The notes beneath the pieces are model-generated. The model saw only the letters and a program-made list of their open reading frames with translations. It ran no database searches and was not told the DNA's origin. DNA of 61,315 nucleotides from IMG/VR virus record IMGVR_UViG_3300020020_000031, positions 1-61,315 of that record; one strand, 5' to 3'. The DNA comes from a virus. Lineage: Duplodnaviria; Caudoviricetes. The translations under genes were made by a program, and so were the position numbers. Positions 2,072 through 17,678 of the stretch are shown here, in pieces. How positions within the stretch are numbered: position 1 is the first letter of the stretch; each line of letters opens with the position of its first letter.

Positions 2072-2158
2072 GGGAGATATAGAGTAATGGAAGTCTGCGC
2101 TGGCCACTCGCTGCAAACCCGTGGACCAGAGGTGGCGGTTCGATTCCGCCTGTCTCCC
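2072..2158 (+). tRNA. Atypical tRNA or tRNA-like RNA; Cys(GCA)-type loop on an extended anticodon arm
   Basis: Acceptor stem (G)GGAGATA/TGTCTCC(C); perfect T arm GGCGG-TTCGATT-CCGCC; D-loop AATGG. Anticodon arm CTGG-CCAC-TCG-[CTGCAAA]-CCC-GTGG-A-CCAG is about 13 nt too long. No encoded CCA. Confidence 0.65.
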
Positions 2159-12043: not shown

Positions 12044-14259
12044 AGATCCTGTGGGCCTGGCTCCGAGAGGGATGGCGGTACCGCCTCCGGCAGGGGAACA
12101 CCCGCCTCAAGACCCACCAGCCGGAGTACCTGGAGCAATTGCAACAAGAGACCGAGCTAGTTATATCCAAGGACTTCGCCAGCTACTTCTTGCTGGTGTC
12201 GGATATTGTCCGCTGGGCAAAGGACCACGGGATTGCGGTCGGTCCCGGTCGCGGTAGCTCTGCGGCTAGCCTTGACTGTTATCTACTTCGCATTACCGAG
12301 CCAGATCCTCTAATGTTCCCATTGACAGACTTCACCCGCTTCATAGACCCCACCCGCGTGGATCTCCCGGACATAGACGTTGACTTTGATGACGTGCGCC
12401 GCCATGAGGTCCGGGAGTACGCGGTATCGCGGTGGGGCGAGGAGAGCGTTGCCAACATCGGAACCTTTACCAAATACAAAGGCAGGAACTCCATCACGGA
12501 CGTTGGGCGAGTATACGCGATCCCGCCCGGGCCGTTGGCAGTGGTCAAGGGAATGATCATCGAGCGCTCGGGCGGAGACTCTCGTGCGGACGCTAGTCTT
12601 GAGGACACCTTTGCTAGCTTCCCTCCGGCGGCGGAAGTCCTGGCGCTATACCCCAAGCTACAGATGGCGGTTGAGCTTGAGGGTAACTACCGGGGTATGA
12701 GTACCCATGCGGCCGGCTTGGTGATCTCCGATACGCCTATTGCTGACGTATGTGCGATGTACTCTCGTCTGGTTCATGGCCGACCAATTGCGGCCGTAGC
12801 AGTCGACAAGAAAGATGCTGAGTACCTGGGATTGATGAAGATTGATGTCCTGGGACTGACCACCATGGGCGAGATCGCAGAGATGTTGCAGCTGACCGGG
12901 ATGACGCTGGAGGAGTTGTACGCGCTCCCGTTTGACGATGAGCTTACGTTTGCCGCGTTCCAACGGGCGGACGTCATAGGCATATTCCAGTTCGAGGGGC
13001 GCGCTACCCGCCTGGTTTGCCGGGAGGTCAAGCCGGAGGACATCTATGAACTCATTCACGTCAACGCGCTCTCTCGCCCAGGTCCGTTGTTCTCCGGAAC
13101 GACTACCGAGTTCATTAACATCAAGCGCGGACTTATGGAGATCCCTCTGATCCATCCCATCCTGGATCGGATAGCGGCTCCCACGCGCGGACAGATCATC
13201 TATCAAGAGCAAGTGCTGCATTCCTTGGCGGAGTTTGGTGGATTGCCGGTCCAGCGGGTCCATGATATCCGGAAGATCATCAGCCAGAAACTGGGAGAGG
13301 CGCAGTTCAATGCCTCCTCGGAAAACTTCATAACTGGTGCAATGGAACGGAACAACGTCTCGCGCGAGGTAGCCTTCAAGGTTTGGGAGCGTGTTGTGAC
13401 CTCCGCCTCCTATGCGTTCGTCTATAGCCACTCGCTCTCGTACAGCATCATCGGGTATTGGTGTCAATGGTTCAAGCAGCATTACCCTACGGAGTTCTAC
13501 CAAGTCAAACTGGGGCGGACCTCGGACAATCAGCGACCCATACTAGTGAGGGATGCAGAACGGCACGGAGTCCGGGTCAAAGGGGTGACGCTAGGCAAGA
13601 GCGCTATTGGTTGGACGTCTCCGCGGAACGGCGAGCTAGTGGCGGGTTATGAGACCCTACCCGGAGTAGGGCCGGTCGTGGCCGCCAAGATATCCAAGAC
13701 GGAGGCGGAGCGCGGCGGATTCACTCAGGTGGAGGAGTTGTTGACGGTCCCTGGTATTGGACCCAAGACCTTGGAGAAGATGCGGCCACTTGTGAACGTG
13801 GAGGACCCATTCGGACTCCGACGCCTTGAGGAGGATATGGGCCGCGTACGCAAATGGATCCCTACGGCCGGACTGCCTACCCCGACGCATGTCTCTGATG
13901 AGCTACTGGACGTTAGTGAAATGGAGACGGTATTTCTGGGATTTGTGTTGGAGCGGAACTACCAAGACTATGTGGAGAACAAGAGAGCGCGCTACGGGAC
14001 GGAGGTCGCCGACATCATCAAGGAGATGCGGCGCCCGGACCTCAAGACGAGCGTGGTCCTACGCTGCGTAGACGATGGAGATGAAGATGTGTACGTACGG
14101 ATCAACCGCTACGATTTCCCAAATCTCAAGAGCCGTATAGACGGCATAGTGGTGGGTCGGGACATGGTCCTCGTCCGAGGTCGCAAGAGCGATAAGGTGG
14201 CAGCATTCGGAATCTCTGTGCAGACGAAGTGGCTGGTTCCCATTGATCCCAACGATTAA
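11944..14259 (+). CDS. dnaE: DNA polymerase III alpha catalytic core (split DnaE, C part); start codon uncertain
   Basis: FASYFL, GPGRGSSAAS, PDIDVDF, HAAG, KIDVLGL, GIFQFE, RPGP, YQEQV, HhH motifs and C-terminal OB fold. Confidence 0.93.
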   Translation: MGTTATRLLHHGNSRAQPGAILSADQEAFLDPVEILWAWLREGWRYRLRQGNTRLKTHQPEYLEQLQQETELVISKDFASYFLLVSDIVRWAKDHGIAVGPGRGSSAASLDCYLLRITEPDPLMFPLTDFTRFIDPTRVDLPDIDVDFDDVRRHEVREYAVSRWGEESVANIGTFTKYKGRNSITDVGRVYAIPPGPLAVVKGMIIERSGGDSRADASLEDTFASFPPAAEVLALYPKLQMAVELEGNYRGMSTHAAGLVISDTPIADVCAMYSRLVHGRPIAAVAVDKKDAEYLGLMKIDVLGLTTMGEIAEMLQLTGMTLEELYALPFDDELTFAAFQRADVIGIFQFEGRATRLVCREVKPEDIYELIHVNALSRPGPLFSGTTTEFINIKRGLMEIPLIHPILDRIAAPTRGQIIYQEQVLHSLAEFGGLPVQRVHDIRKIISQKLGEAQFNASSENFITGAMERNNVSREVAFKVWERVVTSASYAFVYSHSLSYSIIGYWCQWFKQHYPTEFYQVKLGRTSDNQRPILVRDAERHGVRVKGVTLGKSAIGWTSPRNGELVAGYETLPGVGPVVAAKISKTEAERGGFTQVEELLTVPGIGPKTLEKMRPLVNVEDPFGLRRLEEDMGRVRKWIPTAGLPTPTHVSDELLDVSEMETVFLGFVLERNYQDYVENKRARYGTEVADIIKEMRRPDLKTSVVLRCVDDGDEDVYVRINRYDFPNLKSRIDGIVVGRDMVLVRGRKSDKVAAFGISVQTKWLVPIDPND

Positions 14260-14279
14260 AAGAATCTTGCCTAGTACAC

Positions 14280-14308
14280 TAGCCCCACCGCCCGGTATCG
14301 GAGAGAAT
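14280..14308 (+). promoter_or_regulatory. Candidate promoter upstream of the Tas operon
   Basis: TAGCCC-N17-GAGAAT; shares CTAGCCCCACC with the promoter at 3378. Confidence 0.4.
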
Positions 14309-14385
14309 CAGTTTGCTAGTCCGATTTTGCGAGGAGGGGAGAGGGATGGTCTAGGGCGAACCGGCTCAGGAACACTGATGAAAAT

Positions 14386-14420
14386 TACAGGAGGCGAGCC
14401 CTGGAACTCGCCTCCTGTTT
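14386..14420. terminator. Hairpin (terminator or leader structure)
   Basis: ACAGGAGGCGAG / CTCGCCTCCTGT perfect 12-bp stem. Confidence 0.65.
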
Positions 14421-14456
14421 GCTGGAAAACTGACGAAGATCCTTTAAGGAGAAACG

Positions 14457-14825
14457 GTGGCTCCGGGAGATGCGGTGGAGGAAATGAAGCGTGCCCTACA
14501 GGGAGATCCGGATCTGCTGCCCGTATTCCGGGCGGGCGAGAATCTTACCATTCAACGCGATGTCAAGGGACAGAACGTCCTGATGGTGGTGGAGGCGCGT
14601 GACCCTTGCTCCCTCGGCCCGCATATGATGCTCCTTCGCGCTACCATGAAGACGTGGGGCGTATCGTCCTATGCAGACGGACGGGTGGCCGCGCAACGAG
14701 ATTCGATCGACCGCCTACTGAAGGAACGGGAGCAAGTCCTGAAACTTGCAATCAAGTACGGGGCGACGGAGATCATCGATCTTCTAACCGCGCCAAGAGA
14801 GGGAGCCGAAAGTGAGCAACTTTGA
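14457..14825 (+). CDS. Hypothetical protein
   Basis: AAGGAG RBS; C-terminal coiled coil. Confidence 0.65.
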   Translation: MAPGDAVEEMKRALQGDPDLLPVFRAGENLTIQRDVKGQNVLMVVEARDPCSLGPHMMLLRATMKTWGVSSYADGRVAAQRDSIDRLLKEREQVLKLAIKYGATEIIDLLTAPREGAESEQL

Positions 14826-15291
14826 CCTGCAACAGCTAGTAAAAGATGTACTGGAGAATTCGGAACTGAACGATCCGCGCGATATCGCAGCCGAGGTGTC
14901 TCGACAAACTCCATCCAAGGTTCTCCGTGAGGCTTATGAGATTGCGCTGGTGGACTACGTACGGAACGTCAGTATCAACAATACCCGATCTAACCCGATC
15001 ATTCGTGGAAGGACCCCGCGAATCAAGACGGGCTCCGCCAAGCGGATTGGGATTCGCGACTGGTGGCAGCGAGCGATGCGGGATCGGGTCTATATCGACT
15101 CCAACCAGAAGATCTGGAAGCCTCTTGGGGATTGCGGCTTTGATGACCTAATGCTGGCTGCCGACAGCCGGCGTGCCAAGGCCGATGCAATCAACGCCAA
15201 GGCTGATCAATTCGAGCGACTTGCGAATCTACTCAAAGAGTATGGTGTGGATTGCGTCTCCGAGCTTCCTCGTGAGGCCATCGATGCCTAA
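14812..15291 (+). CDS. Conserved-looking hypothetical protein, candidate Tas partner
   Basis: AGAGAGGGAG RBS; its stop overlaps the Tas start; SAK..GIRDWW and WK.LGDC..DDL motifs. Confidence 0.75.
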   Translation: MSNFDLQQLVKDVLENSELNDPRDIAAEVSRQTPSKVLREAYEIALVDYVRNVSINNTRSNPIIRGRTPRIKTGSAKRIGIRDWWQRAMRDRVYIDSNQKIWKPLGDCGFDDLMLAADSRRAKADAINAKADQFERLANLLKEYGVDCVSELPREAIDA

Positions 15292-16402
15292 GAAGACTCC
15301 TGGCCGGGCCAATAACGGCCCGATGCCCATACGCGCCTCGCCCGGCCAGGGCAAGACTCTCGGGAAGACCACAACCCCAACTACAACCATAGCCAATTCG
15401 CCTTCCCGGGACAAGACTCCACGTCAGGCCAGCGAGCATCCGAAGCCCATGGGCGGCTCGCCTGACGTGGACCTATTCGAACCCACTCTAGCCCTGTCCG
15501 CTGATGTTCTGGATGACCTGGAGCAAACCAGGATCGCTAACGAGAATCGGCTCCGCCAGCTTGTTCGATCTGAGGCCGACAGCGACGGAGAGGAGCGCGG
15601 CTTTGGACTGGATGACACCAATCCTGTCGTGGCCGCACTCCAGAAGATGATTGCTGGACTCTTCGAGATTGAGGGGAAAGCTGTACTCAATCTTGAGAAG
15701 GTGATGAAAGCGCACCCTCTCGGGGAGTGGCAGAGAGCGCAGCACGGAATTGGCGCTAAACAATGCGCACGCCTTATAGCCGCTATCGGGGACCCATACA
15801 TCAGACCGGCATACGCGATCGAGAACGAAGACGGGACTGTTACGGAGGTCCCAGCCGCTCCGCGTACCGTGTCGCAACTTTGGGCCTATTCCGGCTATCA
15901 CACACTCCCCATCGGCCAGGCGCGAGACGATACCCATATAATAGTCGCCGATGGGGGCAAACTCCCGACCAGCAGCCATCTTACCTTCGAAACCCACAAG
16001 GGCACCGCTGCTGTTCGGGGCAAGTCCGGCAACCGGAGCCAGAGTCCCTCCGATCCCCATCCACCATTCGCTTCGGTTGCCGCAAAACGTAAGAAAGGCG
16101 AACGCGCCAATTGGTCCGCTGACGCCAAGATGCGTGCATTCCTTATTGCAGAGAAAACGGTTCAGCTAGGAAAGGCGGTCGACAGCCCGTACTATGAGGC
16201 GTATGCAAAGCGCAAGGCTAACACAGAAGGTCGGACCCATGTTGCGCCTTGTGTCCGTTGCGGGCCTAGTGGGAAGCCTGCCTTGAAAGGTTCCGTATGG
16301 TCGGACGGTCACCGCCACGCCGACGCGCTCCGTATTGTTGCCAAGGAGATCCTGAAGGGCCTCTGGATAGAGGCGAAGAGGCTTCACGAGGAGGAGAAAT
16401 GA
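15284..16402 (+). CDS. Tas-like (TasA-type) Nop-domain protein related to the IS110 transposase C-terminus, with no nuclease domain
   Basis: Coiled coil (DDLEQTRIANENRL), HPLGEW....GIG...ARLIA.IGDP, SQLWAYSG, KRKKG...NWS, SPYYEAY..RK, H..ALR.VAKEIL..LW. No DEDD RuvC or HNH domain. Start could instead be 15449 or 15467. Confidence 0.8.
   Translation: MPKKTPGRANNGPMPIRASPGQGKTLGKTTTPTTTIANSPSRDKTPRQASEHPKPMGGSPDVDLFEPTLALSADVLDDLEQTRIANENRLRQLVRSEADSDGEERGFGLDDTNPVVAALQKMIAGLFEIEGKAVLNLEKVMKAHPLGEWQRAQHGIGAKQCARLIAAIGDPYIRPAYAIENEDGTVTEVPAAPRTVSQLWAYSGYHTLPIGQARDDTHIIVADGGKLPTSSHLTFETHKGTAAVRGKSGNRSQSPSDPHPPFASVAAKRKKGERANWSADAKMRAFLIAEKTVQLGKAVDSPYYEAYAKRKANTEGRTHVAPCVRCGPSGKPALKGSVWSDGHRHADALRIVAKEILKGLWIEAKRLHEEEK
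15293..15471 (+). ncRNA. TIGR-like guide array 1 (three stem-closed dual-spacer units, 60-nt period)
   Basis: CCA at 15309/15369/15429. Spacer pairs: ATAACGGCC+TACGCGCCT, CAACCCCAA+TAGCCAATT, GCGAGCATC+TGGGCGGCT. Central repeats CGATGCCCA/CTACAACCA/CGAAGCCCA. Linker AAGACTC. Flanking 11-12 bp stems. Confidence 0.85.
15905..16082 (+). ncRNA. TIGR-like guide array 2 (three units) embedded in frame inside the Tas coding sequence
   Basis: CCA at 15916/15976/16039. Spacer pairs: GGCGCGAGA+TATAATAGT, TCTTACCTT+CAAGGGCAC, GAGTCCCTC+TCCACCATT. Central repeats CGATACCCA/CGAAACCCA/CGATCCCCA. Flanking 10-13 bp stems. Confidence 0.85.
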
Positions 16403-16505
16403 ATCAATGGGTTGTGGCGTTCCTAATCTTCTGGTTGGGAACCGGAGCGCTTACTGTGGCGAACAACTTCGCCAACGTCCTCAAAGAAAAGAACAAGAGG
16501 CTGCG

Positions 16506-17678
16506 ATGAACGAACCGGCTTGGTTGACCGAGCACCGCGAATCTAAGTCCCTGTTGCAACTCCTGGCACCTCTATTCTCCGGCCACGAGGGGTTGGCGGA
16601 TCAGGAGTTAGACAATCTTGTCCATGTGGCGGAGACTGCGTTCAACAACCACTCCAAGAACACCGGGGAGCACGTCTCGCCATTCGATACCGGCATCGTT
16701 CGGGTAGGAACGGATGGTCTGGAGGTCCGGTTGCTCCAGGGCATTAACTTCGCCGGCCTCAAGCAGGTTATAGCAAAGGGAGTTCGCGCCACAATTGGGA
16801 ACCCTCGTCCGCAACGCTGGACTCCGCCAAGCCTTATGTCAGATCACCAGACGGTCTCCGACGAAGAGTGGCAGGAGATGTTCCGGGGTGGACTCCAAGC
16901 CGCGCTGGAGTCCCAGACGATTGTCTTTGAGGTCTGGGGCGCGTCCCGTGTCCTGACGCACCAGTTGGTTCGCAGTCGCCGCGCGGGATTCCACCAGCAG
17001 AGCCAGCGATCTACCTGGTACGGCGACCAACCTGAGGTACGGATGCCGGAGACCGTATGGCGCGCTGGCCATGTGGTTCGGGAGAGGTGGAGACAAAGCT
17101 ACTTTGCTGCGTGGGATGCGTACAGGAAAGCTTGCGACGCAGGAGTGCCGTACGAGGATGCGCGGTACATCCTCCCGGAAGGAACCGTCAACTACATCCA
17201 GTGCGAGTACACCATTCGGGAGTTCATGGCGGTCTACGCCTACCGGGGGTGCTCAATGTTCCTCCGGGAAATGGTTGAGTGTATGCGGTTGATGCGCGCC
17301 GCGCTCCTGGAGCAGGCTCCCTGGATGGAGCCGTTCGTGAAGGTCTCCTGCGAGACCGGACCCGGTTGCCCAGAGTGCGGCGGTCGTGGTTCATACTTTA
17401 CCGAATGGAGCGATGCAGCCTCGGCTAATCCCGAACTCGATCGAATGGTCCGTTATTACCCGGACCCACCGGATGGTACGGTCGAAATCGAATGCCAGAC
17501 CTGCCACGGAACAGGCGGTCGCAAGTGCACCTTCCAGGGCTGGGAGAATGTCGAGCTCGCGTGCGACAAGCCAATGGCCAAAGAAAACAACCGGGTATTT
17601 GTTGCTTCCCCCCGGCTTCGCATCGGAGCTAAAGAACGGCCCGCCACCGACAAAGAAGTAAAGGACTGGCTGTCATGA
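16506..17678 (+). CDS. thyX: Divergent flavin-dependent thymidylate synthase with a zinc-finger insertion
   Basis: ALE...FEV.GASR..THQLVRSR..GF.QQSQR, GVP.EDARYILP; two CxxCxGxG motifs near the C-terminus. Confidence 0.8.
   Translation: MNEPAWLTEHRESKSLLQLLAPLFSGHEGLADQELDNLVHVAETAFNNHSKNTGEHVSPFDTGIVRVGTDGLEVRLLQGINFAGLKQVIAKGVRATIGNPRPQRWTPPSLMSDHQTVSDEEWQEMFRGGLQAALESQTIVFEVWGASRVLTHQLVRSRRAGFHQQSQRSTWYGDQPEVRMPETVWRAGHVVRERWRQSYFAAWDAYRKACDAGVPYEDARYILPEGTVNYIQCEYTIREFMAVYAYRGCSMFLREMVECMRLMRAALLEQAPWMEPFVKVSCETGPGCPECGGRGSYFTEWSDAASANPELDRMVRYYPDPPDGTVEIECQTCHGTGGRKCTFQGWENVELACDKPMAKENNRVFVASPRLRIGAKERPATDKEVKDWLS

Follow-up and report, generated by a model that had tools for sequence, protein, structure and literature searches.

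The window analyzed here, an entire IMG/VR virus record of 61,315 bases (soil metagenome origin; estimated completeness 96%), contains a gene, tasA, in which guide RNA units lie inside the coding sequence for a Nop-domain protein. The locus raises the question of whether such an array is translated as a part of the protein or is removed from the mRNA like an intron. The segment in question is very likely a three-unit stem-loop TIGR (tandem interspaced guide RNA) array in the wedge-coding part of tasA, and the N-terminal tail is encoded by another array, also of three units. From the frame and stop codon patterns of related loci, we infer that the array would be read through in frame and that the DNA would be dual coding.

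The gene is located as follows:

15284..16402, plus strand: tasA, encoding a nuclease-less TIGR-associated Nop-domain protein of 372 amino acids (aa); based on the open reading frame (ORF), PHROG, PDB profile and Foldseek

The uninterrupted open frame around tasA spans 15173..16402. The start codon of tasA is most likely the ATG at 15284, with an 8-nt overlap into the end of the upstream gene (stop codon included) and a GAGG 6 nt 5' of it. PHROG 4285, which carries the label "transposase," matched TasA residues 66-371 (E value, 1.2e-77), and Pfam revealed no domain either for TasA or for its neighbors. A profile of 63 homologues detected TasR (9mty_A; E value, 5.2e-30) and TasH (E value, 2.8e-15) among the PDB sequences. 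In the AlphaFold2 model (mean predicted local distance difference test score [pLDDT], 80.5; core, >90), the conserved part begins at residue 66 with a coiled coil, and long helices were found at residues 67-94 and 114-143. Foldseek with this model ranked TasR first (1.8e-7), followed by TasH (~1e-4), IS621 (1.5e-2) and then Nop5, and its top 10 matches were exclusively TasR or TasH. Judged by profile and predicted fold, the phage protein has no nuclease domain and belongs to the class that Faure et al. 2025 (PMC12045711) call TasA.

Residues 1-46 are array coded and predicted to be disordered, and pLDDT fell below 50 both there and at residues 215-250. The latter lie in the second insert: the distance from the ...LWAYSGYH motif to VAAKRKKGERANWS is about 60 codons. 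In the alignment to TasR, G204...N276-W277 of the window protein faces G210...K230, and G210-K230 is the wedge loop of TaTasR as defined by Xu et al. (bioRxiv 10.64898/2026.09.09.750476, September 2026; Methods). In the model, strands 207-209 and 264-266 make up a beta-hairpin, and the wedge insert is its disordered tip. The first-pass annotation, made from the letters of the window, had described a Nop-domain protein with some 60 codons of array placed between two motifs that a short loop normally connects, free of stop codons and unstructured in translation. All of this stood: the TasR and TasH matches support the Nop-domain assignment, the loop is the wedge loop of Tas proteins, the low pLDDT agrees with a lack of structure, and the ORF is open throughout the insert.

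Guide units within the tasA reading frame

An inverted-repeat search identified six inverted repeats with 30-nt loops, all within the tasA ORF. They were parsed into the following TIGR guide RNA (tigRNA) units:

15299..15350, plus strand: tigRNA unit 1, array 1 (N-terminal tail); fold, -29.5 kcal/mol; box C 15309-15311, spacer A 15312-15320, CG 15321-15322, box C' 15327-15329, spacer B 15330-15338, CG 15339-15340
15358..15411, plus strand: tigRNA unit 2, array 1; fold, -14.3 kcal/mol; internal box D is CT, not CG
15418..15471, plus strand: tigRNA unit 3, array 1; fold, -31.2 kcal/mol; ends 8 nt 5' of the first conserved residue
15907..15956, plus strand: tigRNA unit 4, array 2 (wedge loop); fold, -22.5 kcal/mol; box C 15916-15918, spacer A 15919-15927, CG 15928-15929, box C' 15934-15936, spacer B 15937-15945, CG 15946-15947
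15964..16019, plus strand: tigRNA unit 5, array 2 (wedge loop); fold, -24.1 kcal/mol
16027..16082, plus strand: tigRNA unit 6, array 2 (wedge loop); fold, -24.2 kcal/mol

All six units share one layout: CCA, 9 nt, CG (CT once), 4 nt, CCA, 9 nt, CG. Their closing stems vary in sequence and have 10-14 bp; in the inverted-repeat search, the arms measured 10-16 nt and were 90-100% complementary. The unit anchors (15310, 15370, 15430, 15917, 15977 and 16040) are spaced by 60 and 60 nt in array 1 and by 60 and 63 nt in array 2, and abutting units are joined by linkers of 6-8 nt. Just 5' of the stem, the sequence in the window is ACUC (GUC in one unit), and in the family the stem-base positions -2..0 read C, C/U, U by consensus. 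No start codon is present from unit 3 to the conserved core of tasA, apart from an ATG and a GTG within unit 3. In the tigRNAs described by Faure et al. 2025, box C is CCA and box D is UG, the two boxes base pair, and the linker is tetraloop-like, with a twofold pseudo-symmetry; the same work describes "stem-loop arrays," in which variable palindromes stand in place of the edge repeats. By their layout, the window units are tigRNA units, with CG in the position of box D.

The arrays folded better than their dinucleotide shuffles (z of -2.9, with 1/200 shuffles as good, and z of -5.0, with 0/200), and each unit on its own folded as one hairpin (-14 to -31 kcal/mol; z, -2.6 to -4.8). A motif-plus-stem scan of the window, the motif being derived from the six units themselves, gave 6 matches on the plus strand and 0 on the minus strand.

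For comparison with relatives, tblastn with TasA retrieved 90 phage records (83 from Mycobacterium, 5 from Gordonia, 1 from Arthrobacter and 1 from Rhodococcus). The comparison set comprised 3 annotated records, 67 viral contigs, 15 genome contigs (all Actinomycetota) and the window, 86 sequences altogether. Collapsing of identical loci left 80 of the 86 as distinct; close relatives remain among them, so the loci are not independent samples.

Using family-derived patterns, a strict unit scan of the 86 sequences returned 395 units on the gene strand versus 1 on the opposite strand. When only the loop motif and no stem was required, 300 distinct matches were found on the gene strand of the related loci versus 8 on the other strand. 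The 10 positions flanking these motif-only matches paired at a mean of 8.86/10, compared to 3.5-5.4 when the partner was slid by 1-3 nt. Since this pairing lies far above the slid controls, the stems are real, and their sequence varies while the pairing is kept, i.e., they are under selection for RNA structure. The CG dinucleotides were 91-97% conserved in a set of 349 distinct units, which came from 80 distinct sequences (the window and 79 loci); the CG after spacer A, which the scan did not require, was 94% C and 97% G. Parsing of the six units and the logo of the 349 units are in agreement with the original description of guide units with a box C/D-like layout.

Spacer composition was near-uniform across the 349 units. 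Spacer positions 3 and 6 (offsets 4, 7, 22 and 25 from box C) showed a G+C content of 0.62-0.84, with a 3-nt period. This periodicity is not a coding effect, because it was alike in units inside and outside ORFs.

Variation among related loci

In the 85 related actinophage and prophage loci, the wedge site harbored 0, 1, 2, 3 or 4 units. Both flanking motifs were found in 72 of the 86 sequences; the 72 intervals between them all kept a single frame without a stop, had lengths divisible by 3 and clustered at 54-81 nt (no unit), 111-117 nt, 156-192 nt and 222-228 nt. The remaining 14 sequences were inspected by eye: 13 are continuous ORFs with 0, 1, 2 or 4 units, and 1 ends at a contig edge within the insert. 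In 85/86 sequences, the frame continues without a stop into the downstream half of the protein, the remaining sequence being cut by the contig end. Above the no-insert range, the intervals had at least 15 different lengths, each a multiple of 3 and none with a stop, a pattern which is very unlikely without a frame constraint.

At the protein level, wedge lengths were distributed as follows (63 aligned proteins; unit counts by relaxed detection):

Wedge of 9-18 aa: no unit, 30/63 proteins
Wedge of 28-30 aa: 1 unit, 7/63 proteins
Wedge of 43-55 aa: 0-2 detected units, mostly 2, 20/63 proteins
Wedge of 65-67 aa: 3 units, 5/63 proteins, the window among them
Wedge of 90 aa: 4 units, 1/63 proteins

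The insert length changed in steps of ~18-20 aa, close to the steps of about 20 aa for which the first-pass annotation had proposed to look. In a tree of the core (quick maximum likelihood, with many weak branches), at least 7 presence/absence changes were forced by well-supported branches, and parsimony on the best tree gave 17. Moreover, a clade with 98% support in the Shimodaira-Hasegawa-like approximate likelihood ratio test (SH-aLRT) includes relatives with 0, 2 and 3 units. The wedge site gains and loses units often, and the frame is kept each time. This supports read-through and speaks against splicing.

Removal of the array like an intron, with the flanks rejoined and a short mature wedge loop, was the second possibility raised by the first-pass annotation. 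The idea draws on an analogy, as small nucleolar RNAs (snoRNAs) of the box C/D type are hosted in introns of the eukaryotic NOP56 and NOP58 genes, and short-loop homologues do exist (30/63). However, removal would lift the frame and stop constraints, and precisely these are kept, in all 72 measured intervals and in 13 of the 14 other sequences; arrays that are often out of frame, named in advance (together with a lack of splicing) as one observation that would refute the original proposal, were not seen among the measured wedge intervals. In addition, wedge units are in one reading phase (59/60), the Rfam gathering search of the window detected no intron, ribozyme or snoRNA family but a tRNA alone (2073-2158), and a step of RNA ligation is not described for TIGR systems in the text available from Faure et al. 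2025 or Xu et al. 2026. We consider excision very improbable, and the competing proposal, translation as a tolerated loop, is strongly supported by the in-frame, stop-free intervals of at least 15 lengths.

It is also very unlikely that tasA is a decaying gene disrupted by insertion of the array. Nothing beyond the unusual insert itself suggests decay. The ORF is intact, the core is modeled at a pLDDT of >90, and many diverged lineages have retained the architecture, with 0-4 units.

Two sequences deserve mention for their wedge regions. L028 has a wedge of 39 nt and no unit in it; the peptide motifs that flank the insert in unit-bearing relatives (HVLP...SAP.R) are still there, which is how a clean deletion of the units would look. 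In a Nocardia suismassiliense contig (L084:1632-3881), the tasA gene has an insertion of ~440 aa directly after the Cys of the conserved WAYC motif. The insertion terminates in ...HN followed by Cys, immediately 5' of a two-unit wedge insert, and together with tasA it forms a single continuous open frame of 799 codons. By these sequence features, it looks like an intein.

Reading phase was analyzed for 246 units located within the tas ORF. Box C was in phase 0 in 162 units, in phase 1 in 5 and in phase 2 in 79, with the following distribution over the protein:

N-terminal tail units: phase 0, 99; phase 1, 5; phase 2, 73
Wedge-loop units: phase 0, 59; phase 1, 0; phase 2, 1
C-terminal units: phase 0, 4; phase 1, 0; phase 2, 5

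If read in phase 1, 176 of the 246 units would be stop-free. In phase 1, the boxes would become CCA and CGA codons. Such codons are rare in high-GC actinobacteria, and phase 1 may be avoided because of them. The claim that the spacing is always a multiple of 3 was correct for the window and for wedge-loop units generally (24/24 spacings) but not for the 5'-end arrays of relatives (spacing modulo 3, 54/23/31). Among 44 distinct loci with at least 2 units directly upstream of the conserved core, the 5' array region was stop-free in the tas frame in 37, compared to 11 and 6 in the other two frames. Avoidance of stops had also been proposed to limit the choice of spacers; the effect is real but modest, as 79/95 units outside the tas ORF were stop-free in the usual phase and only about 1 in 6 would carry a stop.

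Phase 0 converts the internal CG-A-NN-C-CCA to acidic-x-His/Gln, a tripeptide that recurs in all wedge inserts. This recurrence, which stems from the use of one phase in the wedge, is what could be expected if the repeat were a peptide module of the wedge loop with incidental hairpins, and some selection on the peptide is possible. However, the residue conservation is exactly what the box motifs impose, the stems pair at 8.86/10 despite unrelated sequences, and the same units are also found away from any tas ORF and, in N-terminal tails, in two different phases. Furthermore, the peptide is predicted to be disordered, and its spacer-coded residues differ even between near-identical phages. A repeat at the protein level is extremely unlikely.

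The spacers change much faster than their surroundings in several pairs of close relatives, to which, and to positional orthologues, the comparison was limited. The numbers of differing positions were:

L041 versus L067: spacers, 41/90; stems, 2/110; rest of ORF, 15/777
L058 versus L062: spacers, 37/90; stems, 12/94; rest of ORF, 29/682
L017 versus L072: spacers, 52/90; stems, 26/120; rest of ORF, 162/809
L077 versus L079: spacers, 5/108; stems, 6/124; rest of ORF, 25/842 (no spacer excess)
L034 versus L035: spacers, 1/108; stems, 0/114; rest of ORF, 2/920 (no spacer excess)

In L041/L067, L058/L062, L055/L056 and L017/L072, spacers together with the 4-nt linker differed by 41-66%, stems by 2-22% and the core by 2-20%; where the number of units differs between arrays, the pairwise alignment may match different units. 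For a single orthologous wedge unit of L041/L067, spacer A was identical and spacer B was changed at 5/9 positions. Stem identity was dropped as a proof of orthology, because stems share a consensus; 18/20 identity was found among unrelated units (0.36% of random pairs). In the N-terminal arrays L041:1680-1977 and L067:1740-1920, two alternating, nearly invariant stems are combined with variable spacers and translated in frame. By their sequence, these arrays are a form between dual-repeat and stem-loop arrays.

Proposed expression of the arrays and neighboring genes

According to Xu et al. 2026, stem-loop tigRNAs are cut near the stem base, where a conserved CUU is the processing site, and TasA represses transcription. 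Faure et al. 2025 reported that tigRNA maturation requires Tas proteins, that these bind RNA as dimers via box C and box D, and that the two tigRNA spacers pair with opposite DNA strands. Carrying cutting, dimer binding, strand pairing and repression over from these relatives (in part from the preprint), we propose the following for the phage. Ribosomes would read through the array and produce TasA with a disordered wedge extension of ~55 aa, the sequence of which would be a by-product of the guides. The operon transcript would have two fates: translation through the arrays, and cutting near the stem bases to yield six tigRNAs. A TasA dimer would bind these tigRNAs through box C and box D, and the two 9-nt spacers would each pair with a different strand of the target DNA. 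As it lacks a nuclease, the complex would serve as an RNA-guided DNA binder or a transcriptional repressor. An mRNA cut at units 4-6 would give no full-length TasA, and guide maturation and TasA synthesis would compete. If TasA promotes the cutting of its own mRNA, the result would be a negative feedback, as already suggested by the first-pass annotation.

Neither competition nor feedback would arise if the wedge units were transcribed from a promoter within tasA or belonged to a separate transcript pool. Xu et al. 2026 (Discussion) cannot tell the processing of a long precursor from promoter-driven transcription of internal arrays, and the present data contain no evidence for cotranscription. 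On the other hand, a scan of 14000-17000 for sigma-70-like promoters, other promoter types being outside its scope, found 0 versus a shuffle mean of 1.0; the linkers of 6-8 nt between units leave little room for a promoter, and tasA lies within a tightly packed same-strand operon. We regard such an uncoupled form of dual coding as rather unlikely.

Several observations weigh against the reading as a translated and processed tigRNA array. The stable hairpins (-14 to -31 kcal/mol) within the ORF might hinder translation. Arrays need not be translated in this family, as 7/44 of the 5' arrays have stops in the tas frame, and some units are located downstream of the tas gene. Spacers carry no codon-usage signal in the G+C content of third codon positions (0.55 in phase 0 versus 0.47 at the same positions in units outside the ORF; 0.48 in phase 2 versus 0.53), which also speaks against the codon-usage account of phase. 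The stem base of the phage units is CUC, compared to the CUU published by Xu et al. 2026, and their box D is CG, compared to the UG of TasR. A search of the 61-kb genome for self-targets (composite 9+9-nt targets, both orders, gaps of 0-2) yielded, with 3 mismatches, 4 matches versus 1-4 in ten shuffled controls, and two of the four matches were the arrays themselves. Finally, the sequencing runs that contain the phage sequence are DNA runs of soil and sediment metagenomes and none is an RNA run, so read-through, processing and binding are all inferred. The same sequence was also present in a second soil sample (four DNA runs inspected).

The surroundings of tasA include the following features:

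14812..15291, plus strand: conserved upstream neighbor of 159 aa, PHROG 4604 (E value, 3e-25); its stop overlaps the tasA start
2073-2158, plus strand: tRNA gene, the sole Rfam match of the window (37.1 bits)

The gene order in this same-strand replication module is a DNA polymerase III alpha-like gene (PHROG 11165), two small ORFs, tasA and a thymidylate synthase gene. A homologue of the 159-aa protein is encoded directly upstream and on the same strand in 60/85 related loci. The array-bearing ORF and the upstream gene share exactly 4 nt, between the first start codon of the former and the stop of the latter, in 26/50 loci, an arrangement which is the usual sign of translational coupling. The AlphaFold2 model of the upstream protein has a pLDDT of 89.3, and no fold match was found (best Foldseek E value, 1.1; best VIA-align Z, 4.8, with single-helix matches). 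For this TasA clade, the protein appears to be a conserved partner. Furthermore, units were detected in frame and in phase 0 within the central disordered linker of the upstream gene (L010:1348; L027:1550 and 1613; L051:1628 and 1691), where they yield the same acidic-x-His/Gln tripeptides. Thus, tas is not the only gene with guides inside it. A term search of the available text of the Xu preprint found no mention of a partner gene, and the text consulted of Faure et al. 2025 mentions only occasional ParB-like neighbors of tas.

That the embedding of the arrays is a selected design and not a tolerated accident is conceivable but doubtful. Three observations favor it: the wedge units use one phase (59/60), one phase is nearly banned (5/246) and the arrays in the partner linker are in frame. 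If true, guide-encoded peptides located in the strand-separating loop would matter to the ribonucleoprotein, and cutting of guides from the tasA-partner mRNA would provide a TasA-dependent feedback on both proteins. In addition, a process of spacer renewal would operate inside coding sequence, as spacers are replaced far faster than stems and core.

Comparison with known systems

The IS110 recombinases and TasA have a homologous C-terminal RNA-binding domain and a coiled coil (IS621, PDB 8wt6/8wt9; Foldseek E values, 1.5e-2 to 3.7e-2), and PHROGs and some phage records label the TasA family "transposase." The wedge insert lies at the tip of the hairpin that is equivalent to the C-terminal beta-hairpin of IS110, where these recombinases have their catalytic serine. 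The identity of the phage protein as an IS110-family recombinase was nevertheless rejected, since the N-terminal DEDD RuvC-like domain was not found: Pfam gave no match, and the N terminus consists of a disordered tail followed by the coiled coil. There was also no sign of transposon ends at the locus. Moreover, the RNA of the phage is an array of small dual-spacer units, whereas that of IS110 is one two-loop bridge RNA.

With the archaeal and eukaryotic box C/D small nucleolar ribonucleoproteins (snoRNPs; Nop5/Nop56/Nop58), TasA shares the Nop fold, albeit in weak Foldseek matches (E values, 0.5-1.4). Like snoRNP guides, the phage units contain two antisense elements, each placed between a C-type and a D-type box. 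Unlike box C/D snoRNAs, they have CCA and CG in these positions and no RUGAUGA/CUGA boxes or k-turn; fibrillarin and L7Ae were not searched for. The published targets of Tas proteins are DNA, unlike those of box C/D snoRNPs. In mycobacteriophage D29, considered because of its small RNAs (Dedrick 2017) and then dropped, no tasA-like gene is annotated in 40-47 kb, a statement that refers to the annotation and not to a sequence search.

Among the closest known systems are the TIGR-Tas stem-loop arrays of Faure et al. 2025, which likewise come with a phage-borne Nop-domain protein with a coiled coil. Those arrays lie upstream or downstream of tas, and a term search of the main text revealed none inside an ORF, whereas in the phage they are inside the ORF. 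Intragenic stem-loop tigRNAs that leave the reading frame undisrupted and lie in disordered regions were described by Xu et al. 2026. In Bifidobacterium longum TasA, these authors detected processed tigRNAs from two wedge-loop units by small-RNA sequencing. This protein and that of the phage are both nuclease-less TasA proteins with in-frame wedge-loop units in disordered regions; according to the legend in Xu et al. 2026, the B. longum protein has two such units, while the soil actinophage has three.

In-frame intragenic guide arrays are already described in kind by Xu et al. 2026, and the phage locus adds another case. The restriction of phase, the stop/start overlap with the upstream gene and the units within that gene were not found in the consulted text of Faure et al. 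2025 or Xu et al. 2026; the supplements and TIGRSafari may hold them. A tasA mRNA that is also the precursor of the guides of its own protein would be an unusual case of overlapping information and would link effector dosage to guide production. To this, the locus contributes a clean natural series of 0-4 units at one site, always in frame. The details added, namely the limits on phase (two of three phases in use, one in the wedge), the start at the stop of a conserved gene, the units in that gene and the fast turnover of spacers, bear on tigRNA maturation in stem-loop arrays and on spacer renewal, which are open questions in both TIGR papers, as far as their consulted text goes.

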